Source of the DNA: an uncultured Pseudomonadales bacterium | Lineage (GTDB): Bacteria; Patescibacteriota; Microgenomatia; UBA1400; PJMF01 | Reading direction: 5' to 3' | NCBI GenBank assembly: GCA_964437755.1 | Contig: CAYTIA010000003.1 | Span: 7,641 to 71,640 of the forward strand | DNA length: 64,000 nt | Part shown: positions 2,169-52,717 of the stretch, one piece after another | How the letters are laid out: each line of letters opens with the position of its first letter | How positions within the stretch are numbered: position 1 is the stretch's first letter | Position numbers and translations under genes: made by a program | Notes under the pieces: generated by a model | The model's input: the letters and a program-made list of their open reading frames with translations, nothing else | Told to the model about the DNA's origin: nothing | Database searches by the model: none

Positions 2169-2177
2169 AAACTTTAA

Positions 2178-9993: not shown

Positions 9994-10019
9994 AAACAGG
10001 TAGAAACGATAAAAATTGC

Positions 10020-11012: not shown

Positions 11013-11067
11013 AGTCTAAATTTAAAATACAAAATATTACCAATCAGGGTTACTTTATTTAGAAAAA

Positions 11068-13199: not shown

Positions 13200-13205
13200 T
13201 TTTTT

Positions 13206-14336: not shown

Positions 14337-14375
14337 AATTAGGGATTCTTAAAAAAGTTACTCTAGAAAAATTTT

Positions 14376-15509: not shown

Positions 15510-15520
15510 ATTACAAAACA

Positions 15521-16399: not shown

Positions 16400-16419
16400 A
16401 ACCATATACTAAATAAGTA

Positions 16420-17163: not shown

Positions 17164-17192
17164 AAAGATTTCTTAAATTCTTTTGAAGATTC

Positions 17193-17993: not shown

Positions 17994-18205
17994 GGGTGTG
18001 AGTGATAATAAAACAAAGAGGTGTTAATGGCAATTTGCAGATTTCTTCACCGTACTCTTTCAAAAATTAAAATTGCCATTTGACACACAAACATTTTTTA
18101 GAGTATTCTATATATCAGGACAGGTTGTGTTCGCTTGTTGTTATTTGTTCAAAAACTGTATACTAAAATAAAATATATATATTTCGCCAAATCAATCTAA
18201 CATCA

Positions 18206-19999: not shown

Positions 20000-20048
20000 C
20001 TTACGTAATAATATACAGACTAGTATCCTTAACTTGTAATAATCAATA

Positions 20049-21471: not shown

Positions 21472-21545
21472 GCGCGCGTAGCTCAATTGGTTAGAGCACC
21501 AAGCTTATACCTTGGCGGTTCTTGGTTCGAGTCCAAGCGCGCGCA
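21472..21545 (+). tRNA. tRNA with anticodon UAU (tRNA-Ile decoding AUA by anticodon; identity needs confirmation)
   Basis: Hand-folded cloverleaf: acceptor GCGCGCG/CGCGCGC, D-arm GCTC-AATTGGTTA-GAGC, anticodon arm CCAAG-CTTATAC-CTTGG, variable loop CGGTT, T-arm CTTGG-TTCGAGT-CCAAG, discriminator A. No CCA is encoded. Confidence 0.7.
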
Positions 21546-21583
21546 CTCTTTAAATTACATAGTTATATTTAATCCGGAAACTT

Positions 21584-27788: not shown

Positions 27789-30122
27789 CTATAATTTCGC
27801 CCTGATCTGCATCTCCTCTTCAATAAGAGCTCTGTCTTTTCCGTATTTAAGCCTAGACAACTCCTTAATCATTTCAGCTAATTTTGGATTCATTTGTGCC
27901 TCAATCTTGTCCATATCTTTTTCAAGAGATACGCTAAAAGGTGGAACTGGCTCATTATTCACAATCGTTTTCATGTACACATGATATTTTTCAATGTTTG
28001 TTAAATCTGCTTCATTAAAGGTTGGCACAAATTCATGTTGCAAGAAATTTGCATCAGTCACACCAACTCTAAAAGAAACCATGGTGCCTACATTACCAAA
28101 AACGGCATTTTTTACATCTTCTTCTATTTGACCGACATACTGATTGGCAACTATTAGGTTTAGTTTGTATTTTCTTGCCTCAGACAAAATCACAGCAAAG
28201 TCTTCGGTTGCATAATTCTGAAACTCATCAACGTATAAAAAGAAGTCATGTCGTTGATCTTGAGGTACATCAGCTCTACTCATGGCAGCGGTTAAGATTT
28301 TTGGTACCAGAATCAATCCCAAGAATTTGGCATCTTCCTCTCCCAAAACACCTTTTGAAAGATTACAAAGAAGAATTTTCTTTTCGTCCATTGCTTTTCT
28401 AAAGTCAAAAGCGCTCTGAGTTTGACCAATAATATTACGCATCACTTTGTTGGTCACAAAACGACCAAATTTTGAAACAATATAGTCCAATACTTCCGAC
28501 TTATGAAAATCGCTCGTTTGCGCAATTTGATCAGTCCAGTATCTTTTAACAACTGGATCTTTAATATAAGGTAACATCTCTTTAACAAAGTTTTCATCTG
28601 TGAGAATTCTCACCACTTCGATAAATGTTGAGTTTTCCCTACTCATAACTGATAGCATTGCATTTCTAATAGCATGCTCGAAACGAGGTCCAATAATACC
28701 TGTGCGGTGCGGATCATACAGCTTATACATTAAGGAAATAATAGAACCTACAACAAAATGTCTTTGGTCCTCATTGTAGGCCTCCATGATGTTAAGGCCC
28801 ATTGGACGCTCCTTATCTGATGGATTGAAGTAAATCACGTCCTCAGCTCTCTCCGCAGGCATTAGCTGCATCACATCCTCCACAAACTCTCCGTGCGGAT
28901 CAATGGCAGCAACCCCATGACCGTTTTCAATATCCTGCAAGATCATCTGCTTAAGAAATTCGGATTTACCCGTACCGGTTTTACCAACAATATACATGTG
29001 ACGCCTGCGATCCTTAAGGCTCATATACACTTTTCGCGTTTCACCTCGATAATGAGATTCTCCTATAAATAATCCTGACTGAGGAATTTCGTGTGGAGCC
29101 GGTGCGTTTTTAGCCGTTAACCACTTAATGTGATGAGTCTCAACCGTTTTGTTAGGAAAATGAAAGATGGTAGCTAGCTCAGATGTATTAAAAACACTAG
29201 TACCCTTATTAAAAAGAGGCATATAGCGATAAATAAAATCAATCATAAATAAGTGCTTTAAAAAAATGCGAACTTTTTTAAATGAGTTGTGAGCTGAAAC
29301 AAACTGAGAAAAAGAGCCTTTCACATTTTCAACATGAAGTTTTGCCATCTCTTCATTTTGAGCTGAAACTACAACTCTAATAGATGTTCTAAAACCAGGC
29401 CTAGAAATCTTGTCGCTAATAGCTTCCATTTCTTTAGGATCGTGAGTGTATGAGGCCTTTTCAGGATCTGCTTCCTTTTTCTTTTGCTTACTCATATAAG
29501 AATTTCCTCTTTTTTGCCAACGACCACCGATGGGTTGAATCAGTATCTGCAACACTCCTCCCTCGCCTGTTTGCATTTTTGATAAAGATGATGTGATTAA
29601 GGACAGTCCATCTGTCGGTAAATCCTTATAAGTTTGAATTGGATAATAGGTTGGTTTTTCAAGCTTAATTGCCCCAAAAGCAACCTTACCCTCTTCGTTA
29701 AAAATATTCACCTCATCAACCTCTTTAATTACGGCTTGAGGATAGGCGCCATTAATTTGTTTCTCAACGATGTCTTGAATTTTTTTGGAGCAACTTACAT
29801 AAAATCCAAGCTCTTCTTGTAATGACACTATTTCAAAAGCTATTGTTTCTTGTCTTTTTGTAAAAGAAAAAAAACCACTTTTATGCAAAGAATAAAGACC
29901 AGCAAACATCTGTTCGGCCGCATCGATCTTGATTTCATTGTCTTTAGGAAGTTTGACCAGGAGAGTTACAAAATTAATAGCATAATCTTCTCTTTTTAAA
30001 TGCTTTAGCCATTGGGCAAACATATAAATAAATACCCCAATCAACAGAATAATTAGCACAAATAAAAGGATACCTGCAAAAACTGCAAAAAGTTGGTTTA
30101 CTAGTTGATTAATTGAGTCCAT
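27789..30122 (-). CDS. FtsK/HerA-superfamily secretion ATPase, VirB4/TraC-like (DUF87-type)
   Basis: N-terminal TM, an about 350-aa N-domain, Walker A 'GKTGTGKSEF', 'AAIDPHGE', Walker B 'FFLYVDEFQNY', and 'RKYKLNLIVANQYVGQI' (the RKYG..ATQ motif of VirB4/VirD4/HerA). Confidence 0.55.
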   Translation of the reverse strand: MDSINQLVNQLFAVFAGILLFVLIILLIGVFIYMFAQWLKHLKREDYAINFVTLLVKLPKDNEIKIDAAEQMFAGLYSLHKSGFFSFTKRQETIAFEIVSLQEELGFYVSCSKKIQDIVEKQINGAYPQAVIKEVDEVNIFNEEGKVAFGAIKLEKPTYYPIQTYKDLPTDGLSLITSSLSKMQTGEGGVLQILIQPIGGRWQKRGNSYMSKQKKKEADPEKASYTHDPKEMEAISDKISRPGFRTSIRVVVSAQNEEMAKLHVENVKGSFSQFVSAHNSFKKVRIFLKHLFMIDFIYRYMPLFNKGTSVFNTSELATIFHFPNKTVETHHIKWLTAKNAPAPHEIPQSGLFIGESHYRGETRKVYMSLKDRRRHMYIVGKTGTGKSEFLKQMILQDIENGHGVAAIDPHGEFVEDVMQLMPAERAEDVIYFNPSDKERPMGLNIMEAYNEDQRHFVVGSIISLMYKLYDPHRTGIIGPRFEHAIRNAMLSVMSRENSTFIEVVRILTDENFVKEMLPYIKDPVVKRYWTDQIAQTSDFHKSEVLDYIVSKFGRFVTNKVMRNIIGQTQSAFDFRKAMDEKKILLCNLSKGVLGEEDAKFLGLILVPKILTAAMSRADVPQDQRHDFFLYVDEFQNYATEDFAVILSEARKYKLNLIVANQYVGQIEEDVKNAVFGNVGTMVSFRVGVTDANFLQHEFVPTFNEADLTNIEKYHVYMKTIVNNEPVPPFSVSLEKDMDKIEAQMNPKLAEMIKELSRLKYGKDRALIEEEMQIRAKL

Positions 30123-39424: not shown

Positions 39425-39712
39425 ATGTCAAAAATACAAACACCAGAAAACATTGATGAACTTCCATTGGCTGTCATCAAAAATATTATTTCTCTTTCTA
39501 CAAGTGGCTTTGGACTTGTGGTTGCCCTGGCATGGAATGAGTTAATTCGCTCAACTGTTCAAACATATTTAACTCCAATTTTGGGTGAAGGTGGAGGATT
39601 AATTTCATTGTTGATTTATTCTTTAGTCGTTACTACTCTTGCAGTTTTAGTAACTATGGAGTTAGCCAAGATTCAAAAAAAACTTGAAAAGGAAGAAAAC
39701 GAGAAAAGTTAA
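39425..39712 (+). CDS. Small 2-TM membrane protein (hypothetical)
   Basis: ORF with two hydrophobic helices and a charged C-terminus. Confidence 0.35.
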   Translation: MSKIQTPENIDELPLAVIKNIISLSTSGFGLVVALAWNELIRSTVQTYLTPILGEGGGLISLLIYSLVVTTLAVLVTMELAKIQKKLEKEENEKS

Positions 39713-40603: not shown

Positions 40604-41708
40604 CAACTTGAGCCGATTTAAGCCGATCCTTGATTTCATTGATCAGACTGTTGTCTGCCGTGGTAATAATTGTTTGTTCACCATCCACAAGCTCTAATAC
40701 TCTCTTTCTGTTCGCTTCATCAAGCTCAGATAGAATATCGTCGAGTAGCAAAATTGGCGATAACCCCGATTCTTGTTTTAAAAATGCAAGTTCTGCTTTT
40801 TTAAGCCACAATACCCCCATTCTTTTTTGTCCTCTTGATCCATACGCGTTTAATGATCTGAGCTCATTATTATTATCCAGCCCTTCGTTTAAAAGAAACT
40901 GAACTTCAAAATCATCTTTGTGCGGCCCAATTAAACTAAACCCCGCTGCAATTTCCGCATCAGAACGCTCAAGCAACCTTTTTTCAGTAATAACTGATGG
41001 CAAATACTTAAACTTAAAAGATAAAGAGGATTCAACGGTTACGTTAACAAACTCAGCAAAACTTTTTCGCGATTCTTGTATTTTCTTCCCATGCTTGATT
41101 AAGCTCATGTTCCAATATGTTAACGCTTGGTGTGGTTGAGTGCCTTCTCTCACCTGAAAAAGCAATCTATTGCGTCTTTTTAATGTTTTTTCATATTGCT
41201 GTAAGGACTGAACATATTCTTGATTCACCTGAGACAAAGCTAAGTCAAGATAATCTCTTCTTCTTGACGGAGATCCCTCAATGAGTCGCATGTCCTCTGG
41301 CCTAAAAACCACAACTAATAAATTTCCAACAAAGTCTTTTTTCCGTCTCTTGTTATCATTCACTGAAAAGTGTTGTCTTTGAGTTCTTTTGCCATTAACC
41401 AATCCCCTTGTTAAAAGTATGGCAAGTTGTGTTTCGTCAATGACGCCTAAATCTTGTGTTTCATTTAACAACTCAATATCAGGAATAATTTTTGCTTTTA
41501 TTTGAGCAATTTCAGCATCTAAAGCCACCATCTCATCAACCTTGCTTGCTCTAAAACTTTTCCCTGTAGCTAGAAGGTGAATTGACTCGACAACAGTACT
41601 TTTTCCGCCAGCATTTGAGGCAACAAAAACTGTTATCTGATTTTGAAACTCAAATATTTTTTGAGAGAAGAGCCTAAAGTCCTTCAATAATAGTTTGTGT
41701 AAAAACAT
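40593..41708 (-). CDS. recF: DNA replication and repair protein RecF
   Basis: N-terminal Walker A 'ASNAGGKSTVVESIHLLATGKSFR' and a C-terminal 'LLLDDILSELD' signature/D-loop. Confidence 0.8.
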   Translation of the reverse strand: MFLHKLLLKDFRLFSQKIFEFQNQITVFVASNAGGKSTVVESIHLLATGKSFRASKVDEMVALDAEIAQIKAKIIPDIELLNETQDLGVIDETQLAILLTRGLVNGKRTQRQHFSVNDNKRRKKDFVGNLLVVVFRPEDMRLIEGSPSRRRDYLDLALSQVNQEYVQSLQQYEKTLKRRNRLLFQVREGTQPHQALTYWNMSLIKHGKKIQESRKSFAEFVNVTVESSLSFKFKYLPSVITEKRLLERSDAEIAAGFSLIGPHKDDFEVQFLLNEGLDNNNELRSLNAYGSRGQKRMGVLWLKKAELAFLKQESGLSPILLLDDILSELDEANRKRVLELVDGEQTIITTADNSLINEIKDRLKSAQVVNL

Positions 41709-41735
41709 TTTTTACCTTAAGCTTTGTTAGCGAAT

Positions 41736-42089
41736 TTATTTTTTACCATCAAAAGCCAGCTTAAATCTTACCAGTAAATAAAAAAGCATCGCTTGCCAGT
41801 AAATAATAAAAACCGTTGCCCAAGTTGACAAAAATGAATAATAAATGTCTAGTTCTAAAGAACTATCCTTAAAAATTGCGATCAACAACGATAAAACTAT
41901 TTTTTTCCAAACTACAGTTAAAATTCCTAAAATTAGAGTTGGAAGTAGTGTTAACCAAACGAAAACTTTCTGTTCAACTAACAGCTGCATGGTCTGATAC
42001 GGATGAACTAATAGCCCCAACGAAAATCTTCCCAAAGCATACAAAAATGATATCAACCAATTATTCATATAGTTTTTAGAGCAATCCAA
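41736..42089 (-). CDS. Hypothetical membrane protein
   Basis: ORF with 3 TM. Downstream of the sigma/anti-sigma candidate pair. Confidence 0.3.
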   Translation of the reverse strand: MDCSKNYMNNWLISFLYALGRFSLGLLVHPYQTMQLLVEQKVFVWLTLLPTLILGILTVVWKKIVLSLLIAIFKDSSLELDIYYSFLSTWATVFIIYWQAMLFYLLVRFKLAFDGKK

Positions 42090-42267
42090 TAAGTATTGTT
42101 GTAATAAATGATAGGAGCAAAATTGAAAGCCAGGGATAATACATTATCAACCTTATAAGCTTTCCAAGATCCCTGGGTAAAATTCTACTTTTTTCCAACT
42201 GAGCTTGGCGTTTGGCCTCTAGTTGCAACTGATTTATTAAGTCAATGTTTATTTTTTTATTGAGCAT
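42076..42267 (-). CDS. Small single-pass membrane protein, candidate minimal anti-sigma factor
   Basis: 63 aa. A cytoplasmic N-terminal helix plus a C-terminal TM. Its start immediately follows the ECF sigma stop (42267/42269). Confidence 0.3.
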   Translation of the reverse strand: MLNKKINIDLINQLQLEAKRQAQLEKSRILPRDLGKLIRLIMYYPWLSILLLSFITTILIGLL

Positions 42268-42268
42268 T

Positions 42269-42823
42269 CTATGTTAACCGTGTATCACTAATTTGAGCAT
42301 AAATTTTTTTAAATGAGTCCTTTGAGCGCCATAACTCAGACTCCACTGATTTAAGGGTCTTACCTACTTTCTTAGCTATTTCTCTAATTTTTAATCCATC
42401 AACATATTTCATTAGAAGTAATGATTTTCTATACGTTCCCATTCTAGAAAGAGTGAGTCTTACTACATCATTAACCACCCGACTATCAGCAATTGGTTTA
42501 TCTAAAAGATACTTACCAAGCGGTACCACGCTGATCGCTTTTTTCGCGTATTTTTTTCTATAATAGTCAGCAATTTCGTGTCTTAATATAGTATTCATCC
42601 AGGTTCTTAGGCTTGATTCTTCTCTAAAAATTTGAATCTGGCGAAGAGAATTAATCATTGTTTCTTGAACAACATCTTCCGCGTCTTTTGGATTAGATAT
42701 CTTCAAATTTGCCAATGAAAGAAGCTTTGGATGATAAAAATCAAACCATTTTTTCACAGCCAAAGAATCACCACGTTTGAGTTTTTTTACCAGCTCCTTT
42801 TCTTGTTTTATGCTTAAGTTCAT
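42269..42823 (-). CDS. RNA polymerase sigma-70 family ECF-type sigma factor
   Basis: Region 2 'DAEDVVQETMINSLRQIQIFREESSLRTWMNTILRHEIADYYRK' and region 4 'LLLMKYVDGLKIREIAKKVGKTLKSVESELWR'. Confidence 0.8.
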   Translation of the reverse strand: MNLSIKQEKELVKKLKRGDSLAVKKWFDFYHPKLLSLANLKISNPKDAEDVVQETMINSLRQIQIFREESSLRTWMNTILRHEIADYYRKKYAKKAISVVPLGKYLLDKPIADSRVVNDVVRLTLSRMGTYRKSLLLMKYVDGLKIREIAKKVGKTLKSVESELWRSKDSFKKIYAQISDTRLT

Positions 42824-42847
42824 TTTTGCTGATAAGACTAAATATTT

Positions 42848-42867
42848 ATAGAATAAGTTTATTCTAT
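42848..42867. promoter_or_regulatory. Perfect 20-bp palindrome (9-2-9) in the divergent promoter region between the ECF sigma gene and the pilin array
   Basis: ATAGAATAA-GT-TTATTCTAT, 25 nt upstream of the sigma gene start codon. An extended -10 'TGTTATAAT' at about 42974-42982 faces the pilin genes. Confidence 0.5.
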
Positions 42868-42984
42868 CACTTACTAGATCATTTATTCACAATCTTGTCA
42901 TTAAAATCAATTTATGTATATAGTCGATAAAAATGGTTCTCAGATAAGAAAAGGCTACAAAATTGCTTTCAAGTGTTATAATAT

Positions 42985-43386
42985 TTGCTACTAGAGATGT
43001 TTAATCAACTTTACTTCTTAATCAACGGCTTTAATTCGTTTGCTCCAAAAGCAAACACTGGTTTAAATTTGTCTGATTATTTAAGAGTTCAAGATAAACA
43101 AGGAAATTCCTCATCAATCGCTGAAGTTTACAACAGTCCCTCAGTTTTCGTAAATCTGATAGTGAGTAATCTTTTTATAATTGCAGGAATAATCATTTTT
43201 TTTATGGTTATTGGAGCTGGATTTAGCTATCTAAAAGATTCTGATAAAGGAAAGGATGATGCAAAAAATCTCGCAACTGGAGCTGTTCTTGGATTTCTTG
43301 TGATGTTTGCAGCCTATTGGATTGTCCAAATTGTAAAGTTATTAACTGGAGCTGATATTCCAATTGATGGGGCTGGCCCAATTTAA
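42985..43386 (+). CDS. VirB2/TrbC-like T4SS pilin-family small membrane protein, paralog 1
   Basis: Hydrophobic helix, polar loop 'YLKDSDKGKDDAKN', second hydrophobic helix. Same architecture as paralogs 2-7. The likely true start is the ATG at 42997. Confidence 0.45.
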   Translation: MLLEMFNQLYFLINGFNSFAPKANTGLNLSDYLRVQDKQGNSSSIAEVYNSPSVFVNLIVSNLFIIAGIIIFFMVIGAGFSYLKDSDKGKDDAKNLATGAVLGFLVMFAAYWIVQIVKLLTGADIPIDGAGPI

Positions 43387-43434
43387 AAAATTACTAACTT
43401 TATACTCAACATATTCATATACAATAAAGCCCAC

Positions 43435-43890
43435 ATGATTAAAAAATTTATTAGTCACAAGCCTTTATTATCTTTTCTCTCAATTGCAACCACACTGTTG
43501 TCACAGCTATTTTTTCCTTTAAGAATATTTGCTCAAACAACCGATCCTTTATTTGGCACCATTGAGCCTCCTGTAGGAGTTGACAAATATCAAGATCAAA
43601 TCGGCCCAGGAGAAATCGGTATTATTTTATTTGTTTCAAATCTAATTAGACTTGTTACAATAGTGGCTGGTATCTGGACCATGCTAAACTTCATCTTAGC
43701 AGGATGGTTATATATAACCTCTTCCGGAGATTCGGACACTGGATCAAAAGTTTCTACAAAAATGATCAATAGTGTTATGGGATTTGCCATTATTGCTCTT
43801 TCCTACACCATAGCAGCTTTAGTTGGACTACTTATTTTTGGAGACGCCTCTTATATTATTAATCCGCAGCTAACATCAGTTTTAAATTAA
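43435..43890 (+). CDS. VirB2/TrbC-like pilin-family protein, paralog 2
   Basis: Signal peptide, TM, loop 'WLYITSSGDSDTGSKVSTKM', TM. Confidence 0.45.
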   Translation: MIKKFISHKPLLSFLSIATTLLSQLFFPLRIFAQTTDPLFGTIEPPVGVDKYQDQIGPGEIGIILFVSNLIRLVTIVAGIWTMLNFILAGWLYITSSGDSDTGSKVSTKMINSVMGFAIIALSYTIAALVGLLIFGDASYIINPQLTSVLN

Positions 43891-43897
43891 ATTTTTA

Positions 43898-44335
43898 TTG
43901 AAACAGAACATGTTAAACTCGACAAAAACAATTTTTAAAATCATTTTTAATCTAGTTAATGCGAGTCCTGTTAGCGCTCAATTTAATCGAGGAATTGAGC
44001 CACCAAGTGATTCTCCTTATCTAGATATCGTTAGTGGCAGCGGTGATGTAGAGCCACTCCCTGCTTTTGTTTTATTTTTGTCAAACTTAATTGGGTTAAT
44101 TACCCTGGTTGGAGGGCTCTTTTTCATCGTTTATTTTTTTATGGGAGCTTTTAACTGGGTTACTGGAGGCGAAGATTCTGGTAAAGTAGAAAAAGCGCGA
44201 CAAAAAATGATGCATGGAGTACTTGGCCTTGTTGTTTTGGTAATGAGCTATTCACTAATTGGTATTGTTGGCACTATTGTTGGCATTGATCTAATAAACC
44301 TAGAAGAAACTATTATGAGGATCGTTCCTCAATAA
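43898..44335 (+). CDS. VirB2/TrbC-like pilin-family protein, paralog 3
   Basis: Signal peptide, TM, loop 'FNWVTGGEDSGKVEKARQKM', TM. Confidence 0.5.
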   Translation: MKQNMLNSTKTIFKIIFNLVNASPVSAQFNRGIEPPSDSPYLDIVSGSGDVEPLPAFVLFLSNLIGLITLVGGLFFIVYFFMGAFNWVTGGEDSGKVEKARQKMMHGVLGLVVLVMSYSLIGIVGTIVGIDLINLEETIMRIVPQ

Positions 44336-44350
44336 TTATAATATTGAAAA

Positions 44351-44719
44351 ATGTTTAACACCTTTTCATCACTAATACTCAAAGCACAGGCTACATTAAC
44401 CAATCCAATTGTTGGCAATTGGGGAGCTGATGCCGAAGAAGCCACAAGCGGCAGCTTATTTTTTTCTTATGCTTTAAGAATGTGGAGAGTTGGAATGTAT
44501 GCGGGATCTTTAATTGTTTTGGTATATTTTGTATGGGCCGGTGTTGAGTGGATAACTAGCGGAAATGATACTAAAGGAGTGGAAAGCGCAAAAAAAAGAC
44601 TAACCAATGCTGCTATAGGCTTAGTACTAATGGTTTGTTCATTTGCAATAATAGCCTATCTTAATGAATTATTATTTGAAGGTGAATTTGATCTGCTCGA
44701 GTTCACCATACCTGGATAA
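44351..44719 (+). CDS. VirB2/TrbC-like pilin-family protein, paralog 4
   Basis: TM, loop 'VEWITSGNDTKGVESAKKRL', TM. Confidence 0.5.
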   Translation: MFNTFSSLILKAQATLTNPIVGNWGADAEEATSGSLFFSYALRMWRVGMYAGSLIVLVYFVWAGVEWITSGNDTKGVESAKKRLTNAAIGLVLMVCSFAIIAYLNELLFEGEFDLLEFTIPG

Positions 44720-44726
44720 TCCATAT

Positions 44727-45083
44727 ATGCTATCAACTCTTTTAGCCGACATTAGTATTAATCTTCGAGACAAAGCTGTTGAAGAGGATCTTCCTTTCGC
44801 TGCTGAGGCTGCAGAAACTGGTGGAGCAGAAAACATCTTTACCAGGTTTATTGAACGATTTTTAAGTATAGCTATGTTTCTTGGAGCTTTAATATTACTG
44901 GGAAATTTAGTGTTTGGAGGAGTGGAATGGATTATGGCTGGAGGAGACAGTGGAAAAATTGAAAAAGCTAGAAACAGAATGACTCAATCCGTTGTTGGTA
45001 TTATTGTTCTTTCAGCATCAGTTGCTATATTTATGGTAATCAATGATTTCCTTGGAAATCCTCTTGATATCACTCTGACTTAA
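44727..45083 (+). CDS. VirB2/TrbC-like pilin-family protein, paralog 5
   Basis: Start set at the internal ATG 44727, because the track ORF overlaps paralog 4. TM, loop 'VEWIMAGGDSGKIEKARNRM', TM. Confidence 0.5.
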   Translation: MLSTLLADISINLRDKAVEEDLPFAAEAAETGGAENIFTRFIERFLSIAMFLGALILLGNLVFGGVEWIMAGGDSGKIEKARNRMTQSVVGIIVLSASVAIFMVINDFLGNPLDITLT

Positions 45084-45096
45084 TAATTAACATTTT

Positions 45097-45126
45097 TTGA
45101 CTTTTATCGGTCACTCTTGCTATAAT
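45097..45126 (+). promoter_or_regulatory. Sigma70-like promoter of pilin paralog 6
   Basis: TTGACT, an 18-nt spacer, TATAAT. A strong SD 'AAGGAG' at 45163-45168 sits 5 nt before ATG 45174. Confidence 0.55.
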
Positions 45127-45173
45127 ACTAATACTTGATATAAACTAAGAGCATTATTTAATAAGGAGACATT

Positions 45174-45575
45174 ATGAACAAAATTCAAAAAACATTTGCT
45201 GGAGTCGGTGCTTCTTTGACCACATTGGCACTTAGCGCAACACAGGCCAGCGCTCAGATTGGAACAATCAATGTTCCTGAAAGAGGATTCGCTACAAGCA
45301 TCGGAGGACTCATTAACAGTGGTTTAAACCTCGTTATGTTGCTTGCAGCCATTCTGGTTTTTGGATATTTAATTTGGGGAGGAATTGAGTGGATTACTTC
45401 TGGTGGTGATAAGGGTCAAACTGAAAAGGCAAGAAACAAAATTACAGCTGCTATTGTTGGACTTGTTGTCCTAGCTGCTTCATATGCAATACTACAACTT
45501 GCTTTAAGTTTCCTAGGCTTTTCAGGAGGAATTCAGGAAGTATTTAACACAGGTATTGTACCAATTAACAATTAA
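45174..45575 (+). CDS. VirB2/TrbC-like pilin-family protein, paralog 6 (candidate major pilin)
   Basis: Signal peptide with an 'ASA-Q' cleavage site, TM, loop 'IEWITSGGDKGQTEKARNKI', TM. It is the only paralog with its own consensus promoter, a strong SD and a terminator. Confidence 0.55.
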   Translation: MNKIQKTFAGVGASLTTLALSATQASAQIGTINVPERGFATSIGGLINSGLNLVMLLAAILVFGYLIWGGIEWITSGGDKGQTEKARNKITAAIVGLVVLAASYAILQLALSFLGFSGGIQEVFNTGIVPINN

Positions 45576-45598
45576 CCAGTTAATTTATAAAAAGTTAA

Positions 45599-45626
45599 AA
45601 CCCCCGTTTATGCGGGGGTTTTTTAT
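45599..45626 (+). terminator. Rho-independent terminator after pilin paralog 6
   Basis: aaaaCCCCCG-tttatg-CGGGGGtttttt: a GC-rich hairpin followed by a T run. Confidence 0.75.
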
Positions 45627-45653
45627 ATTAATTTGATGTTATAATTTCATTTA

Positions 45654-46142
45654 ATGAAAAGCAATAATTTGACTAAATTGAGTTTATTTCTTTATAAAAC
45701 AAGAAGTTTGATTCTCTTGTTTCTTATTTTAACCATTTCATTTTTTAACACCCAAATAGTTAATGCTCAAACCGTTGACTGGAATACCCGCGAAGCTGAG
45801 TTGGGAGTTGTCTGCTCAGTAAATGGGGTTGCCACAATTCAGGGAATTATGTGCTTGCTTGCAAACGTGATATCTGTTTTTCTAACACTAGTAGGATTGG
45901 CAGGTTTTGTAATGTTAGTTTTTGGCTCAATCAAGTGGTTAATGTCTGGTGGAAATTCTCAGTCTCTGGAAAGCTCAAAAAAAATTATTACTTTCGCTTT
46001 TATAGGATTGTTTTTAGCTCTTGGTTCCGTACTAATCATCAACATAATTGCAAGCTTCACTGGAATTAACGTGATAGAAAGGTTTTTCATTCCCTCAAGC
46101 GATACTGGAGTCAATAGTCTAGATGAGTGGGATAGTATTTAG
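45654..46142 (+). CDS. VirB2/TrbC-like pilin-family protein, paralog 7
   Basis: Signal peptide, TM, loop 'IKWLMSGGNSQSLESSKKII', TM, with a longer C-terminal tail. Confidence 0.45.
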   Translation: MKSNNLTKLSLFLYKTRSLILLFLILTISFFNTQIVNAQTVDWNTREAELGVVCSVNGVATIQGIMCLLANVISVFLTLVGLAGFVMLVFGSIKWLMSGGNSQSLESSKKIITFAFIGLFLALGSVLIINIIASFTGINVIERFFIPSSDTGVNSLDEWDSI

Positions 46143-46855
46143 TGACCAAATCTTCTCTCTCTTCTTTTATATTCGTCTAAAGCCTTGTCTAGCTCATCTT
46201 CATCAAAATCAGGCATTAGTACATCGGAAAAGTATAGTTCTGAGTAAACACTCTGCCATGGTAAAAATCCAGAAAGTCTTTGCTCTCCCCCAGTTCTGAT
46301 AATCAGATCGGGATCTGGTAAAAAACTAGTATCTAAGTTTTGTGATATTTTTTCTTCAATTTGCTTGATAGTCAATCCAGTCAAATCATCTAGGTCAGCA
46401 ATTTTTTTTACTGTTCGAGCAATCTCATCTCTTCCTCCATAGTTAATTGCCAAAGTAACTGTAATGCTGTCATTGTTTTTACTTGATTCCCTTAATTTAT
46501 TTAGGCCTTCCTGAATATCTTTAGGAAATCTTGAGGTATCGCCAATGGTCATAAATCTTACTTTCTTTTTAATCATGGGCTCAAAACCCTTGATAAAAAG
46601 AGTTCTCATAAGATTTAGGATTGCATTAACCTCTTGTTCTTCTCTCTTCCAATTTTCAGTACTGAAAGCCCACAAAGTTAAGTAAGAAACTCCTCTTTTT
46701 ATACAGTGGTCGGTGATTTTTTCGAAACCCTCTGTGGCCACTTTTTCATGACCTTTAAAAATTTTTAACTTGTTTTTTCTTGCCCAACGACGATTTCCGT
46801 CCATGATAATAGCAATGTGAGATAAGCTGTTAGAGTTTGTTTTCATAAACATCAC
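46139..46855 (-). CDS. uppS: Undecaprenyl-diphosphate synthase (isoprenyl transferase)
   Basis: 'HIAIIMDGNRRWARKNKL' and 'LTLWAFSTENWKR' signatures. Confidence 0.85.
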   Translation of the reverse strand: MMFMKTNSNSLSHIAIIMDGNRRWARKNKLKIFKGHEKVATEGFEKITDHCIKRGVSYLTLWAFSTENWKREEQEVNAILNLMRTLFIKGFEPMIKKKVRFMTIGDTSRFPKDIQEGLNKLRESSKNNDSITVTLAINYGGRDEIARTVKKIADLDDLTGLTIKQIEEKISQNLDTSFLPDPDLIIRTGGEQRLSGFLPWQSVYSELYFSDVLMPDFDEDELDKALDEYKRRERRFGH

Positions 46856-47542: not shown

Positions 47543-48406
47543 ATGCCAATTGAAATAATTGTCGCCCAGCCTCATGGATTTTGTGGAGACTCAGTTTTTG
47601 GAGTTAGTGCCGCAATCAGCAAAGCTATTGAGGCCAGCAAAGAATATCCAGGCAATACTTTTTTACTTAAAGAAATTGTTCATAACTCTCATGTAGTAAA
47701 CTGGCTTTTTGACAAATATGGTTTAAAAACAGTTTCAAGTTTAGAAGAAATTCCGGAAGGCTCTGTTGTTGTTCTGAGATCTCATGGTTCATCTCCAGAA
47801 ACATATCAACTAGCCAAACAAAGAAACTTAACAATCATTGATACTACCTGTCCCCTAGTTATTGGAGCTCAAAGACAAGCTAAGAAACTCGCCAACAAAG
47901 GAAGAAAAATTATATATCTTGCTAGTGCCAAAGATCATGATGAAGCTATAAGTGTTTACTATCAGGCACCCGATTCAACAACAATTACAACACTTAATGA
48001 AATTCTTGATTTAAAAATAGAAGATCCCGAAAACACCATAATTTTAACCCAAACAACCCTATCAACTCTTGAAACAGCTAAAGTGTTTTCTCAATTGAAA
48101 AAAAGATATCCCATGATTACAATAGTCCCCCACATCTGCCCTGCCACCACCGCTCGACAACAAGCAGTGATTAAGTTGGCAAAAGAGATCGGTTTTGTGA
48201 TTATTGTTGGTCATCCAACCAGCTCTAACTCCAACAGATTAAAAGAGGTTGCAACTGATTCTGGAGCTGAGGCTTATATAGTTGATACGGAAACGGATTT
48301 GCAGAAAAAGTGGTTTATTAACAAAAAGAAAGTAGCTATAAGCTCCGGGGCAAGTACTCCAGACTGGTTGCTCCAGAGAGTTATAGATAAAATCAAGGAA
48401 ATCTAG
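47543..48406 (+). CDS. ispH: 4-hydroxy-3-methylbut-2-enyl diphosphate reductase
   Basis: 'AQPHGFCGDSVFGV', 'EIVHNSHVV' and a C-terminal 'VGHPTSSNSNRL' region with conserved Cys. Confidence 0.8.
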   Translation: MPIEIIVAQPHGFCGDSVFGVSAAISKAIEASKEYPGNTFLLKEIVHNSHVVNWLFDKYGLKTVSSLEEIPEGSVVVLRSHGSSPETYQLAKQRNLTIIDTTCPLVIGAQRQAKKLANKGRKIIYLASAKDHDEAISVYYQAPDSTTITTLNEILDLKIEDPENTIILTQTTLSTLETAKVFSQLKKRYPMITIVPHICPATTARQQAVIKLAKEIGFVIIVGHPTSSNSNRLKEVATDSGAEAYIVDTETDLQKKWFINKKKVAISSGASTPDWLLQRVIDKIKEI

Positions 48407-48418
48407 ATAGATTAGTTT

Positions 48419-49552
48419 ATGAAAAGAATTGCAATTCTTGGTTCAACTGGACAAATTGGAACTCAAGCGCTTGAGGTTATTTCACACCACCCTGATGAAT
48501 TAAGCGTTGTCAGTTTAGTCTGCAATAATCCATCGAAATTGTTTTTAGAACAAGTCAAAAAATTTTCTCCCAAACACGCAATTGCTGCTTCAAGAGACGG
48601 AGATGAGGCTGTTGTTGCTGCCACAATTGATCCAGAAGTAGATTTAGTAATTGTAGCGGTTGTTGGTACTGCAGGAGTTCTTCCAACCCTTGAAGCAATT
48701 AGACACAATAAAACAATCGCTTTGGCAACAAAAGAGGTTTTAGTACTGGCCGGAGAGATAATAATGGATGAAGCATTAAAATATCATTCCTCAATAATTC
48801 CTCTAGATAGTGAACACTCAGCAATTTTTTCTTTAATCAATCAAACAAAAAATAAAGAAATTAGGAATATTTACATAACCATGGGAGAAGGACCTATTGC
48901 GAAAATGAGTTCTGAACAACTTTCTAGAGTTACCATTAAAGATGTGAATAATCGCCCAAAGTGGACCATGGGAACAAAAATAGCTGTGGATAGTGCTACC
49001 TGTATAAATAAAACGTTTGAAGTAATAGAAGCACATTGGTTATTTGGGTTAACTCCGAATCAAATAAAGATTGTGGTTCATCCTGAATATTTGTGCCACT
49101 CTCTAGTTGAGTTCGTAGATGGTTCTATTGCAGCAGAAATCGGTACACCAGACATGAAACGCTATATTCACTACGCATTGTTTTATCCTGAAAGAAAAAC
49201 CTCGGGGTTTAGCTCTTATTTAGATTTATATGGCCAGTCACTCTCATTTAAAAAGTCGCCAATTGATAAGTTCCCCTGTCTTGGTTTTGGTCATCGAGTC
49301 ATAGCCGAAGATAAATTAATGCCAGCAGTATTGCACGGTGCAGATCGGGCAGCGGTAGAGGCTTTTGTCAATAAAAAAGCTTTTTTCACCGATATTCCAA
49401 CAATTATTACTAGAACACTAGATTTTTTTAGTAACCAAATTTCAAAAAAATCAACAATCTTATCTAAGGAGAAAGATGTTGATCAAAAACTTAAAATAAT
49501 TCTAGACATTGAGCAATCAGCATACATACAAGCACAACAATATTTAAATTAA
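48419..49552 (+). CDS. dxr: 1-deoxy-D-xylulose 5-phosphate reductoisomerase
   Basis: 'KRIAILGSTGQIGTQALEV' NADPH-binding N-terminus. 'LATKEVLVLAGEI' and 'PLDSEHSAIF' catalytic motifs. Confidence 0.85.
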   Translation: MKRIAILGSTGQIGTQALEVISHHPDELSVVSLVCNNPSKLFLEQVKKFSPKHAIAASRDGDEAVVAATIDPEVDLVIVAVVGTAGVLPTLEAIRHNKTIALATKEVLVLAGEIIMDEALKYHSSIIPLDSEHSAIFSLINQTKNKEIRNIYITMGEGPIAKMSSEQLSRVTIKDVNNRPKWTMGTKIAVDSATCINKTFEVIEAHWLFGLTPNQIKIVVHPEYLCHSLVEFVDGSIAAEIGTPDMKRYIHYALFYPERKTSGFSSYLDLYGQSLSFKKSPIDKFPCLGFGHRVIAEDKLMPAVLHGADRAAVEAFVNKKAFFTDIPTIITRTLDFFSNQISKKSTILSKEKDVDQKLKIILDIEQSAYIQAQQYLN

Positions 49553-49566
49553 ATTAACAAACACGC

Positions 49567-50259
49567 ATGACATCAGCAATTATTACTTGCGCCGGAAACC
49601 ACACAAGATTTGGAACAAATAAATTACTTGCAGATTTATGCGGTAAACCTGTTTTTATTAGAACAATTGAAAGTTTTTCAAAAGTTAGATCAATCTCGGA
49701 AATAATTGTGTCTGTTAGAAAAGAACACTACTCTCTTTATCAAAAACTTGTTCAAGAAAATGGATTATCTAAAGTTATATTAACCGAAGGAGGAAAGGAA
49801 AGATTTTTATCAGCTTTTAACGGTGTAAGAAAGTGTAAGAGCTCAAAAGTATTAATACATGATGGCGCAAGACCGCTTGTTTCTCCAAAATTAATCAAGA
49901 GAGTTGTTCAAGCTATTTCTGAACCATCTACTCATGCAGTTATTACAGCGCTTAGGCCTGTCACTTGTATAAAAAGAGGTCGAGAGTTTCAAGTTGAAGA
50001 GTGTCTCGATCGATCTGCTACTTGGGTAGCACAAACACCCCATGCCTATGATAAAGAGTTAATTCTAAAGGCTTACCAAAGGGCAATTGATAATGATGAT
50101 TTTAATGCGATGGATGATAGTGAGCTTGTATTCGCTTATAAAGTTCCAATAAAAGTTGTCGAGGGCGAAGACCACAATTTAAAAATCACGGTTCCAACAG
50201 ACCTTACCATTGCAAGATGTTTATATCAATCTCTTAATAACTCAGAAAGTAAAAAATGA
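49567..50259 (+). CDS. ispD: 2-C-methyl-D-erythritol 4-phosphate cytidylyltransferase
   Basis: 'AIITCAGNHTRFG' P-loop-like N-terminus and IspD length. 4-nt overlap with ispF. Confidence 0.7.
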   Translation: MTSAIITCAGNHTRFGTNKLLADLCGKPVFIRTIESFSKVRSISEIIVSVRKEHYSLYQKLVQENGLSKVILTEGGKERFLSAFNGVRKCKSSKVLIHDGARPLVSPKLIKRVVQAISEPSTHAVITALRPVTCIKRGREFQVEECLDRSATWVAQTPHAYDKELILKAYQRAIDNDDFNAMDDSELVFAYKVPIKVVEGEDHNLKITVPTDLTIARCLYQSLNNSESKK

Positions 50260-50762
50260 TTAGAGTTGGATTAGGGCAAGACAGCCACCCATTAATAAAA
50301 AAAAGCTCTGCAGATAAGCAAAAAATGCTGACATTGGGAGGAATGGAAATTGAGTGCGATTACTATCTTAAAGCAGATTCTGACGGCGATGTGATTATTC
50401 ACGCTGTTTGTAATGCTCTTTCCACAGCGATTGGAGAGGGCTCTCTAGACACATGGACTGGCAAGATGTTTAGACGAGGAATTACTGACAGCAAAAAGTT
50501 TTTGGAGCCTATTTTAAAAAGAATCAATGATAAAAATTTTCAAATCGCAAACCTATCAATCATGATCGAGGCTTCACAGCCAAAATTAGAAAAATATAGA
50601 GAGAATATTAGTAACTCTTTAGCCAAACTTTTAAACATTTCTCTAGATCAAATCGGCATGGCTTTTACTTCTGGAGAGGGTTTAACAAGTTTTGGTAAGG
50701 GAAAAGCTATCCAGGCTTTTTGTAATGTATTAATTGTACAAAAAAATTCCAATCCAGTTTAA
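50256..50762 (+). CDS. ispF: 2-C-methyl-D-erythritol 2,4-cyclodiphosphate synthase
   Basis: 'IRVGLGQDSHPL' and 'SDGDVIIHAVCNAL' zinc/substrate motifs. Confidence 0.85.
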   Translation: MIRVGLGQDSHPLIKKSSADKQKMLTLGGMEIECDYYLKADSDGDVIIHAVCNALSTAIGEGSLDTWTGKMFRRGITDSKKFLEPILKRINDKNFQIANLSIMIEASQPKLEKYRENISNSLAKLLNISLDQIGMAFTSGEGLTSFGKGKAIQAFCNVLIVQKNSNPV

Positions 50763-50772
50763 AAAAATATTT

Positions 50773-51675
50773 ATGCTGGCAAAACATTTTCTCACCACTC
50801 TATCTCCAGCAAAAGTTAATCTTGGTCTCTCGATTTTAAATAAGTTACCAAATGGTTATCATGAGGTTAAAACCATTTATAGTCAGATCTCATTATTTGA
50901 TGAGCTATCTTTTATATTACTCGATACAGACGATGTGACACTAAAATCTAACTCGTCTGAAATTCCTAAAGATGAAAAAAATTTAGTTATTAAAGTTGCA
51001 AAACTTATCCAAAAACAACTTGGAGTAAACAAAGGCGTTCATATTAAAATTACTAAAAATATTCCCATTGAATCTGGACTTGGTGGAGGCAGCTCCAACG
51101 CAGCTCAAACAATTCTAGCCGTCAATCAGTTATGGAAGTTAAATCTAACTCAATCAGAGATGATTGAGTTAGCAAAAACTATTGGGGCAGATGTAGCGTA
51201 TCAACTAGAGGGAGGTATTAAACTCGAAACCCAAGGAGGAAAGGGTTCTGGTCAATTTGAAAATCTTCCAAACTTACCAAAGTGTTTAATCGTCCTTTGT
51301 TTTCCTGGAGTTAGTATTTCAAGTTTTTTGGCATATGAAGAGTTTGACAGGTTTAAAACTAAAGAATACACAACTCAAGCAAATAATTTAGCACCATTGA
51401 TTGAGGCTATAAAAAAGCAAAACATAAGCCTTATTGGAAGAGGTCTTTTCAACGATTTTGAAACTCTAATATTCAAAAAATATCCTCTATTAAAAGGTAT
51501 TAAAAATCAAATGATAGAATATGGAGCACAAGGAGCACTGCTCAGCGGAAAAGGATCATCGGTTTTTGGTTTATTTTCAAACAAAACAGATGCTCAAAAA
51601 ACCTATGAGAAATTACTTAAAAAATATCCCCATACTTATTTAACAACACCATATGAAAAAGAGGAAAAAAACTAA
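50773..51675 (+). CDS. ispE: 4-diphosphocytidyl-2-C-methyl-D-erythritol kinase
   Basis: 'SPAKVNLGLSIL' N-terminus and a GHMP kinase motif 'PIESGLGGGSSNAA'. Start set at ATG 50773; the track ORF begins at 50734. Confidence 0.8.
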   Translation: MLAKHFLTTLSPAKVNLGLSILNKLPNGYHEVKTIYSQISLFDELSFILLDTDDVTLKSNSSEIPKDEKNLVIKVAKLIQKQLGVNKGVHIKITKNIPIESGLGGGSSNAAQTILAVNQLWKLNLTQSEMIELAKTIGADVAYQLEGGIKLETQGGKGSGQFENLPNLPKCLIVLCFPGVSISSFLAYEEFDRFKTKEYTTQANNLAPLIEAIKKQNISLIGRGLFNDFETLIFKKYPLLKGIKNQMIEYGAQGALLSGKGSSVFGLFSNKTDAQKTYEKLLKKYPHTYLTTPYEKEEKN

Positions 51676-52717
51676 AAAAATTAAGGTTGGAGACATTTAC
51701 ATTGGAGGAGATTCTCCCATTACTGTTCAATCAATGATAAAGGTAGATGCCAGAGATGCTAAGGCTGTTTTAAAACAAATTCACGAGTTAGAAGAGGTTG
51801 GTTGTGAAATCATTAGAATGAACATTCTAGACAATGCTGGACTAGAAACTTTTAAGATTATCTCAAAAAAGGCCCATATTCCTGTGGTAGCAGACATTCA
51901 CTTCGATTATCGATGGGCTATTCAAGCAATGGAGTTTGGAGTTCAAAAAGTAAGAATAAATCCTGGAAATATTGGAGATGAATCAAAAGTCGCAAAAGTT
52001 GTTGAAAAAGCAAAAAAATTTCACGTTCCTATCAGAATCGGGGTAAATTCTGGATCAATAGAAAAAGAGCTTTTGCAAAAATACAAACATCCAACAGCTG
52101 AAGCAATGGTTGAGTCAGCTGCTCGGCACATTGAGATGTTAGAAAAACATGATTTTGATCAAATTATAGTTTCCCTTAAAGCTTCAAATGTTAGACTGAT
52201 GACCGAAGCAAACCGCTTATTTTCAACAAAATATGACTATCCCCTACATTTGGGAGTAACAGAAGCCGGACCAGAAAAACTAGGAACTATTAAATCTAGT
52301 GTAGGCATAGGAAGCTTGCTATTAGACGGCATAGGAGACACAATAAGAGTATCTTTAAGCGGGGATCCTAAAGAAGAAATTTTTGTTGGTAAAGAGTTGC
52401 TGAAATCTCTTGATTTAAGACAAGGCCCAACTCTTATTTCTTGCCCCACTTGTAGCAGAACTCAATATGACATGATTCCTCTAGTTAAAAAAGTAGAAAA
52501 ATACTTAAAAAAAATTGATAAACCAATAAAAGTCGCCATTATGGGCTGTATTGTTAATGGCCCAGGCGAAGCAAGAGAGGCAGATGTAGGAATTGCCGGA
52601 GGTCGAAATTCAGGAGTGTTGTTTATCAAAGGAGAAATTGTGAAAAAAGTTGAGGAAGACAAGATGTATGAAGAACTCATTAACACAGTTGAGTCAATAA
52701 TTAACAAAAATAAGTAG
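51653..52717 (+). CDS. ispG: 4-hydroxy-3-methylbut-2-en-1-yl diphosphate synthase (GcpE)
   Basis: 'KVGDIYIGGDSPITVQSM' N-terminus. 'CPTCSR' and 'AIMGCIVNGPGEA' Fe-S cysteines. Confidence 0.85.
   Translation: MKKRKKTKKIKVGDIYIGGDSPITVQSMIKVDARDAKAVLKQIHELEEVGCEIIRMNILDNAGLETFKIISKKAHIPVVADIHFDYRWAIQAMEFGVQKVRINPGNIGDESKVAKVVEKAKKFHVPIRIGVNSGSIEKELLQKYKHPTAEAMVESAARHIEMLEKHDFDQIIVSLKASNVRLMTEANRLFSTKYDYPLHLGVTEAGPEKLGTIKSSVGIGSLLLDGIGDTIRVSLSGDPKEEIFVGKELLKSLDLRQGPTLISCPTCSRTQYDMIPLVKKVEKYLKKIDKPIKVAIMGCIVNGPGEAREADVGIAGGRNSGVLFIKGEIVKKVEEDKMYEELINTVESIINKNK

Follow-up and report, generated by a model that had tools for sequence, protein, structure and literature searches.

A probable array of seven VirB2-like type IV secretion pilin genes beside a divergent ECF sigma operon in a Patescibacteria-type chromosome segment

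A run of seven small genes in a 64,000-nucleotide stretch of bacterial DNA (contig CAYTIA010000003.1 of assembly GCA_964437755.1, positions 7,641 to 71,640; the whole stretch is referred to here as the window, and coordinates are counted from its first letter) is most probably an array of the type known from Patescibacteria, composed of VirB2-like type IV secretion pilins (Pfam family PF18895) and located near the replication origin of a Microgenomatia-like organism. As an explanation of the whole locus this is the best that we can offer. The genes are designated P1 to P7 in their order along the plus strand. They are one more member of a class that was described in 2023-2025, and novelty is therefore low. 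Quinonero-Coronel et al. 2025 (PMC12102498), who screened 3,035 genomes of Patescibacteria for PF04956 and PF18895, counted 441 arrays of 2-11 VirB2-like pilin genes, distributed over 383 assemblies; the genes of an array stand in tandem or have no more than one non-pilin gene between them, and their identity averages 25% and reaches 54% at most. Such arrays are abundant in Microgenomatia, and type IV secretion system (T4SS) genes often lie near dnaA. Seven adjacent genes that are 18-39% identical globally, with a best local match of 49% (P5 with P6), fall within that definition. In S. epibionticum the T4SS cluster contains a series of predicted pilins that has proved essential (Wang et al. 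2023, PMC10633639) and comprises six VirB2-like pilins (FEMS review); the function of Patescibacteria T4SSs and pilin arrays, essential in the one species tested, has been described as completely unknown (PMC11665869, PMC10633639). What the present locus adds to the cited literature is modest: an adjacent sigma operon, orthology of the array position by position, a separate expression unit for P6, and fusions of P4 with P5.

The seven consecutive open reading frames (ORFs) span 42985-46142 on the same strand and encode products of 118-162 amino acids (aa). Hydropathy profiles place a short polar loop between two hydrophobic segments in all seven, and both the same-strand run and this common architecture are as an earlier reading of the sequence (the original prediction) had described them. 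That reading also assigned a signal peptide and a common loop motif to every member, which is true in part. The motif, at its best W-I-T-S-G-G-D-x-G-K-x-E-K-A-R, is well developed in P3-P7 and loose in P1-P2. By inspection and hydropathy, signal-like N-termini with A-x-A/Q sites (the stroke marking the presumed cleavage point) are present in P2, P3, P6 and P7; the signal peptide of P4 is doubtful or weak, and none is evident in P1 and P5. Some of the translation starts allow a choice. The conserved spacing between TGnTATAAT and ATG determined the start adopted for P1, and the P5 gene is called as 118 aa in several other assemblies (L001, L002, L004) and as 139 aa in L003.

The paralogs are strongly diverged, as had been claimed: global identity is 18-39% overall, 18-26% to P1 and 21-39% to P6, whose closest paralog, P5, shares 49% over a local match of 65 aa. 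Divergence is greatest in the post-signal N-terminal segment and in the C-terminal tail, both presumably exposed; conservation is strongest in the loop and the transmembrane (TM) helices rather than at these ends. When the ortholog profiles of the seven are compared with one another, all 21 pairs match in register (probability 96-100%, E 4e-9 to 5e-39), with alignment of the TM1-loop-TM2 cores. The hhalign probability is 96-98% for the P1 profile against P2-P7, 96-99% for P2 against the other paralogs, and 97.6-99.1% for P7 against the other six. The ratio of non-synonymous to synonymous divergence (dN/dS) to the closest relative, in which P6 is 93% identical, is 0.01-0.10 for each of the seven genes, with the reservation that dS is saturated and these ratios are approximate. 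Judged by these sequence comparisons, all seven genes are under purifying selection. The 21 profile matches and the low dN/dS identify them as functional genes of one family, and not chance ORFs.

The family assignment has its real basis in comparisons with hidden Markov models (HMMs). PF18895 (T4SS_pilin, gathering cut-off 26.6 bits) is the sole Pfam family that matches all seven proteins consistently, and P3, P4, P5 and P6 exceed its cut-off with 29.0, 35.3, 30.9 and 38.7 bits. Among 62 aligned members of the family (homologs of P6 together with the window paralogs) PF18895 is matched by every one, PF04956 (TrbC/VirB2, gathering cut-off 27.9 bits) by 31 at E up to 0.01 (best 2.8e-8), and T4SS_CagC, the model of H. 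pylori CagC, by six. The nearest NCBIfam model is NF045849 (the Mbov_0395 family, a pilin-like conjugal transfer protein of Mycoplasma integrative and conjugative elements, or ICEs); P3-P6 remain below its cut-off of 40, P6 reaching 33.8 bits (E 2e-8) in register over nearly the whole of the 80-residue model. The family is very large: its profile is matched at E up to 1e-3 by 75,060 representatives at 50% clustering. An AlphaFold2 model of P6 that was built on the 62-sequence alignment has a mean pLDDT of 80 (above 90 over the core) and consists of a signal-peptide helix, a helix at residues 43-75, a four-residue turn and a helix at 80-113. Its best structural match is the pilus subunit of Aeropyrum pernix (PDB 8dfu), with a score barely above that of generic helical hairpins. 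The structural evidence is consistent with, and suggestive of, a pilin. A sequence-profile search of the PDB returned no pilin, only a designed protein at E 0.64. Comparison by hhalign with A. tumefaciens VirB2 gave a probability of 15.8%; the VirB2 sequence was unverified, and this weak result is not used as evidence.

The array was compared with its relatives by a pattern scan with P4-P6 over one genome per GTDB species, which gave 80 loci with a P6 relative that is 47-93% identical; ORFs were called in these loci and searched with HMMs built from the window proteins. Seven pilin genes are found in 26 of the loci and 8-10 in another 29, the latter making up a sister group. In 24 other sigma-linked seven-gene arrays, P1, P2, P6 and P7 each find their best match at the same ordinal position in every case; for P3-P5 there is a positional ortholog in 19-21 of the 24 (21 for P3, 19 for P4). 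Median identity between orthologs is 41-57%, against 29-33% for the best match to another paralog within the window in most cases (the 49% of P5 and P6 over 65 residues being higher). These comparisons show that the seven are ancient paralogs in a fixed order, each with a single counterpart among the orthologs of other species. Positional orthology and low dN/dS in combination demonstrate an old array of fixed order whose members are not interchangeable.

Some members of the family are joined covalently. In three species the orthologs of P4 and P5 are fused in a single two-module ORF (L063:9052-9867, L064:4402-5229, L069:9015-9809), which suggests that at least P4 and P5 act together. The representative library also holds single polypeptides with 6-17 pilin modules (P0133, P0144, P0181, P0214), with the proviso that missed stop codons were not checked in the DNA; P0133, for example, has one signal peptide followed by six TM-loop-TM modules that are joined by short Gly/Ser/Thr linkers. 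Both kinds of fusion point to side-by-side assembly of different modules.

The surroundings of the related arrays hold three kinds of protein that the window lacks. Upstream of either the array or the sigma operon, some relatives have genes for proteins of 380-510 aa that combine a large N-terminal region with a PF18895 module at the C-terminus (L025:1554-3080, L073:88-1341 and 1338-2693, L020:5071-6303, L054:5334-6485); these are candidate pilins of tip or adhesin type. Directly after the array, on the same strand, 37 related loci encode a protein of about 1,100-1,400 aa (examples are L025:11604-14873, L071:11478-15785, L090:1-3114 and L091:947-4249). Its N-terminus resembles a signal peptide in the two examples read and shows GH5-like motifs by eye; the L025 representative, when scanned, matched no Pfam family. 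A polytopic membrane protein of about 600 aa lies about 4.5 kb downstream in 29 loci.

P6 differs from its neighbors in having what appears to be an expression unit of its own. It is preceded by a sigma-70-type promoter, the best match in the interval 41600-46400, and by a Shine-Dalgarno (SD) sequence, and is followed directly by an intrinsic terminator; an equivalent hairpin follows the P6 ortholog, upstream of the P7 ortholog, in many of the relatives inspected. A -35 element (at least five of six matches) is present in 56 of 80 P6 orthologs and an SD-like motif in 64 of the 80, whereas the other paralogs have SD-like motifs in only 1-21 of 64-79 orthologs. No other paralog is so well conserved or fits the family model so well. 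Promoter, strong SD, terminator and conservation together make it the likely major subunit. The remaining starts are of another kind: P1, P7 and possibly P2 lack an SD and have TGnTATAAT 8-14 nt before the ATG, an arrangement that suggests leaderless or near-leaderless mRNAs. A -10 element (for P1, at least five of six matches) lies within 20 nt of the start in 47 of 64 P1 orthologs and 39 of 79 P7 orthologs, and SD-like motifs are found in one of the 64 and six of the 79, respectively.

Diverging from the array is an operon of three genes. The first encodes an extracytoplasmic function (ECF)-type sigma factor with sigma-70 regions 2 and 4 only; it matches TIGR02937 (sigma70-ECF) at 61 bits, above the cut-off of 42.9, as well as the two Pfam sigma domains listed in Table 1, and the proposal of a divergent ECF sigma factor is thereby confirmed. 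The 63-aa ORF after it, which had been put forward as a miniature anti-sigma factor, is real and conserved (the motif LQxEAxxQA...LPxxL...WQ and the TM segment are kept in 29 loci), but it matches no Pfam or NCBIfam family, anti-sigma domains included; by position, size and its single TM segment it is a candidate anti-sigma factor. The third gene encodes a 110-aa membrane protein, likewise matching no Pfam or NCBIfam family, with the signature GLLxHPYQTMQ...YWQ..L.YLL.RF. Where this protein occurs, its gene always follows the sigma and 63-aa genes; it comes after sigma in 45 of 47 loci, and a word-indexed search for the protein reached 12 relatives.

The association with the array is close. 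Among 62 related loci with enough upstream sequence, 45 have a divergent sigma homolog within 1.5 kb of the first pilin gene, and three more have it slightly displaced (about 77% in all); the adjacency is conserved. The positions of uppS and idi vary: one genome group has them to the right of the array, another has them left of the sigma operon. The block of 110-aa gene, 63-aa gene, sigma and array is nevertheless unbroken in both, and two distant homologs of the 110-aa protein, taken as starting points for the reverse look-up, led again to sigma and PF18895 arrays. These two observations imply a linkage beyond simple collinearity. As for what the sigma factor transcribes, the recognizable promoters of P1, P6, P7 and the sigma gene itself are sigma-70-like, which leaves its direct transcription of the pilin genes unproven. 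An ECF-like GAAC-N15-18-CGT occurs upstream of only one of 48 sigma genes, though the true consensus of this sigma may differ, and a search for dyads in 44 sigma-P1 intergenic regions found nothing above shuffled sequence except TATAAT-like elements. The word sigma does not occur in PMC12102498, and a literature search on Patescibacteria and ECF sigma factors gave nothing relevant.

The genomic setting accords with those described for the class. The window has a low GC content (about 27-40%) and is a bacterial chromosome segment, with the housekeeping genes recF, Pth, ATP-dependent DNA ligase, uppS, genes of the methylerythritol phosphate (MEP) pathway, a class I aminoacyl-tRNA synthetase and ribosomal protein L25. 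It carries the origin-proximal set jag/KhpB-yidC-rnpA-dnaN, with dnaN at 62159-63334; dnaA lies directly beyond dnaN in assemblies that carry an identical dnaN, which puts the array about 17-21 kb from dnaA. Those relatives of window proteins whose names are informative come from metagenome-assembled genomes (MAGs) of Pacebacteria, Woesebacteria and Microgenomates. By its gene content and these named relatives, the window is part of a Patescibacteria chromosome with Microgenomatia-like relatives; the title 'uncultured Pseudomonadales bacterium' on many related records is on the same grounds regarded as a probable mislabelling.

A number of findings weigh against the reading of the locus as a T4SS pilin array with P6 at its center. 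P1, P2 and P7 score below the PF18895 cut-off (17.5, 16.7 and 19.3 bits), but in register. None of the window proteins attains the PF04956 cut-off; only P6 matches that model at all, with 13.9 bits against the required 27.9 (E 0.066). The VirB2/TrbC-like identity that had been proposed is thus upheld by PF18895, four members being above cut-off, and by the PF04956 matches of half the aligned family, but not by PF04956 for the window proteins themselves, and the relation is accordingly one at the superfamily level. For the P6 model Foldseek finds no match in the PDB at E up to 0.001. No VirB4, VirB3, VirB6 or VirB8 was recognized when essentially every ORF of 90 aa or more in the 64-kb window was compared with Pfam and NCBIfam; the presumed link to a T4SS comes from the homology of the pilin module and from the literature. 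The cited papers record no observation of a pilus for any Patescibacteria T4SS. The polypeptides with 6-17 modules fit an assembly embedded in the membrane at least as well as an extruded filament. The adjacency of sigma and array was sampled in 80 loci of one lineage and, since these were selected by similarity to P6, it could partly reflect shared ancestry. Finally, the promoters and the major-subunit role of P6 are inferred from sequence.

The missing core genes need not be troubling. About 40% of assemblies in the published survey have their pilin genes apart from virB4, and VirB3 and VirB6 of Microgenomatia are dispersed or too divergent to detect (PMC12102498), so their absence from 64 kb says little. 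For the same reason the suggestion that the locus might be an unusually minimal, self-contained machine finds no support: published arrays often lie apart from virB4. The absence of VirB6 and VirB8 from the window, as originally predicted, does hold; the accompanying absence of VirD4 does not, the ATPase at 27789-30122, discussed below, being itself VirD4-like.

How might such an array work? The proteins would be inserted in the membrane by way of Sec, with cleavage of the leader where a signal peptide is present, and would have both termini outside, with the conserved loop facing the cytoplasm or the lumen. Their extraction and polymerization into a pilus-like or conduit structure for host-cell contact would be the work of a T4SS core encoded elsewhere (VirB4, TrsD, VirB3-like, VirB6-like). 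P6, from its monocistronic unit, would be the bulk subunit, while P1-P5 and P7 would be made from near-leaderless transcripts as accessory subunits of lower abundance that co-assemble in a defined way. The sigma/63-aa/110-aa operon would be the conserved partner of the array, most likely the envelope-signal module of the apparatus. In its strict form the proposal is that the seven paralogs are the parts list of one hetero-oligomeric structure of VirB2 type in a bacterium that has no outer membrane, with P6 as its bulk polymer, P1-P5 and P7 as obligatory minor subunits in defined neighbor relations and P4 located next to P5, coupled to a dedicated and hitherto unreported sensing or control module of sigma, 63-aa protein and HPYQTMQ protein. 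We advance this tentatively and would not expect it to be correct as stated. Were it true, the organism would possess a multi-subunit T4SS filament or conduit with an envelope-signalling unit of its own, unlike the classical T4SS pili with their single pilin. The locus offers not a new kind of system but testable handles on the role of Patescibacteria T4SS pilin arrays: P6 is the likely main subunit, the copies form an ordered and conserved set, P4 and P5 are probably a pair, and the sigma operon travels with the array in this lineage.

The main rival keeps the homology and dispenses with the pilus. VirB2-related proteins would then stay in the membrane as a hetero-oligomeric ring, channel or platform of a translocon or envelope complex. 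Patescibacteria are monoderm, and monoderm T4SSs are normally without pili (PMC12102498, PMC12857230); the P4-P5 fusions and 6-17-module chains are easily pictured as a polytopic membrane bundle; the nearest NCBIfam model describes the pilin-like protein of ICEs in wall-less Mycoplasma; and it is the loop and TM helices, not the exposed ends, that are most conserved. Set against these considerations are the PF04956 matches in half of the aligned family, which signify homology to bona fide pilus subunits, the solved conjugation pilus subunit that heads the structural matches, and the single, predictedly strong expression of P6 with its terminator, a pattern that would suit the major subunit of a polymer. 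On balance we regard a membrane-resident assembly as unlikely.

The two other alternatives fit the data poorly. According to the first, the array is a diversification or variation cassette that supplies alternative pilins for different host strains or for evading recognition, as proposed for Anaplasma and Bartonella. It has been suggested for Patescibacteria arrays (PMC12102498), and one can cite in its favor that divergence among the paralogs is concentrated in the presumably exposed segments and that several genes appear to have -10 elements of their own. However, position and identity are kept across 24 species, with orthologs well above paralogs in identity; dN/dS is low for every gene; array size is stable at seven, or at 8-10 in the sister group; and P4 and P5 have become fused in three species. 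Repeats and conversion tracts were not seen either, though no search was aimed at them. Fixed order and low dN/dS are hard to reconcile with the antigenic or host-range variation envisaged in the literature, and we consider this explanation very improbable. If these points hold, the published suggestion is countered for this lineage, and attention shifts to heteromeric assembly and its regulation. The second alternative, that the seven are short membrane proteins of two helices with no connection to secretion (holin-like, immunity or stress proteins) in the regulon of the adjacent ECF sigma, can draw on the weak matches that short hydrophobic hairpins make to many membrane families, on the negative Foldseek search of the PDB and on the tight linkage to a sigma/anti-sigma-like/membrane-protein operon, but is scarcely credible in view of PF18895 as the sole family common to all seven with four above its curated threshold, of PF04956 and CagC matches among relatives, of searches that indicated no PADLOC or holin family (the alternative that had been named at the outset), and of sigma-70-like promoters with the ECF-like motif upstream of a single sigma gene in 48.

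Comparison with known systems places the locus more exactly. It resembles the Patescibacteria VirB2 arrays (PMC12102498; SEML1_0006-0019 of S. epibionticum ML1, PMC10633639) in its tandem, same-strand, chromosomal pilins of PF18895/PF04956 type, in a gene number within 2-11, in paralog identity of about 25%, in its Microgenomatia-like host and in proximity to dnaA. The S. epibionticum array, however, lies inside a T4SS cluster, whereas no core T4SS gene accompanies the present one within 64 kb. With the VirB2/TrbC/TraA pilins of diderms (PF04956) it shares two hydrophobic helices, a short charged loop and small size, together with a leader-like N-terminus that is clear in four of the seven; those systems have one pilin, while the window has seven paralogs that fall short of the PF04956 cut-off, in a monoderm host. 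The likeness to the archaeal Ced/Ted pilins (8dfu), which belong to DNA-importing systems, consists of the marginal structure score already mentioned. The virB2 arrays of Anaplasma, Bartonella and Rickettsiales (as cited in PMC12102498) also have divergent copies in a row in cell-dependent organisms, but are read as sets for variation, whereas arrays of the window type are fixed in order with each copy constrained. The Mbov_0395 protein of Mycoplasma ICEs, a weak match in register, is encoded by single genes on mobile elements, not by a chromosomal seven-gene array. The sigma operon, for its part, resembles modules of ECF sigma and membrane anti-sigma factors in its two-domain sigma, the 1-nt gap and the small single-pass membrane protein that follows; it differs in that the 63-aa protein matches no anti-sigma family, that no ECF-type promoter was found upstream, and that there is a third, HPYQTMQ-motif membrane protein.

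Table 1. Coordinates of the array, the sigma operon and associated features in the window
Feature	Coordinates	Strand	Description
P1, pilin-like	42997-43386	+	129 aa from ATG 42997; longest ORF from TTG 42985; array gene 1
P2, pilin-like	43435-43890	+	151 aa; hydrophobic signal-like N-terminal segment (hydropathy)
P3, pilin	43898 or 43910-44335	+	145 aa from TTG 43898; 141 aa from ATG 43910 (start called in other assemblies)
P4, pilin	44351-44719	+	122 aa
P5, pilin	44727-45083	+	118 aa from ATG 44727; longest ORF from 44664 overlaps P4
P6, pilin	45174-45575	+	133 aa; signal peptide ending ASA/Q, helix 43-75, loop SGGD, helix 80-113
P7, pilin-like	45654-46142	+	162 aa; hydrophobic signal-like N-terminus, longer C-terminal tail
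Extended -10, TGTTATAAT	42974-42982	+	14 nt before P1 ATG; candidate promoter of a near-leaderless P1 (to P5) transcript
P6 sigma-70-type promoter	45097-45126	+	TTGACT-N18-TGcTATAAT; best match in 41600-46400, 11/12 with TG
P6 Shine-Dalgarno	45163-45168	+	AAGGAG, from sequence
Intrinsic terminator	45597-45622	+	GC-rich hairpin and T-run directly after P6; terminator scan
Extended -10, TGTTATAAT	45637-45645	+	8 nt before P7 ATG; candidate leaderless promoter
ECF-type sigma factor	42269-42823	-	184 aa; Sigma70_r2 51.7, Sigma70_r4_2 31.0 bits; divergent from array
63-aa protein	42076-42267	-	N-terminal helix, C-terminal TM segment; start 1 nt after sigma stop; anti-sigma candidate
110-aa membrane protein	41736-42068	-	Invariant GLLxHPYQTMQ motif; third gene of sigma operon
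VirD4/TraD-like coupling-protein-type ATPase	27789-30122	-	777 aa; TrwB_AAD_bind (PF10412) 34.8 bits, cut-off 20.5
Inverted repeat, ATAGAATAA-GT-TTATTCTAT	42848-42867	.	9-nt arms, 2-nt spacer

Two further elements had been connected with the array. The ATPase gene 13 kb away exists, but VirB4 is not the best match of its product: its best matches are the coupling proteins TrwB, TraG/TraD, VirD4 and DotL. Besides the PF10412 match in Table 1 it matches DUF87, it scores 18.6 bits with TraG-D_C (below the 22 required), and in the PDB it finds DotL at 6.9e-5 and TrwB; all of its matches to the NCBIfam TraD and VirD4-like CD1115 models are below cut-off. According to the literature, VirD4-like genes occur widely in Patescibacteria, for the most part at a distance from virB4, and in S. 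epibionticum they are not essential. No homolog of this ATPase lies within 10 kb of any array in the 80 related loci, and it was rejected as a partner of the array for this reason.

The other element, described as a perfect 20-bp palindrome between sigma and P1, is an interrupted inverted repeat (Table 1) of no statistical weight. The window contains eight inverted repeats with arms of 9+9 nt, against an average of 3.7 and a maximum of nine in Markov simulations, and in the closest relative, L007, the right arm is conserved and the left arm is not. Read on the minus strand the right arm is TGATAGAAT, a -10-like element ~36 nt upstream of the sigma ATG. Without excess over simulation and without conservation, the palindrome was rejected as a regulatory site.

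Several observations concern other parts of the window. To the right of the array, 47543-52717 holds a run of MEP-pathway genes (ispH, dxr, ispD, ispF, a GHMP kinase and ispG) beside uppS and a NUDIX (idi-like) gene. Only one of the 80 related loci has these MEP genes in common with the window; relatives carry genes of the mevalonate pathway (HMG-CoA reductase, an HMG-CoA-synthase-like enzyme, thiolase and GHMP kinase) by the same sigma/pilin block, which is therefore adjoined by genes of different isoprenoid pathways in different genomes. Three kb upstream of the sigma operon, at 39425-39712, is the gene of a 95-aa DUF5654 protein with two hydrophobic segments, kept in 16 related loci. The only tRNA in the window is a tRNA-Ile with anticodon TAT (UAU), at 21472-21546. 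Just to its left, 18206-21332 encodes two Cys-rich surface-type proteins (597 and 427 aa) with Pro/Thr linkers and a membrane anchor, for which there is neither a Pfam or NCBIfam family nor a homolog in the 80 loci; the GC content of this stretch is 0.39-0.40, against 0.29 to its left. The first part of the window, 1-18000, is a polysaccharide cluster (GC 0.28-0.30) with many GT1/GT2/GT4 glycosyltransferases, a Wzy_C O-antigen-ligase-like protein, an RGP-family protein and an ABC-2 exporter; two of its GT4 genes, at 13206-14336 and 14376-15509, have identical Pfam scores and look like a recent tandem duplicate.

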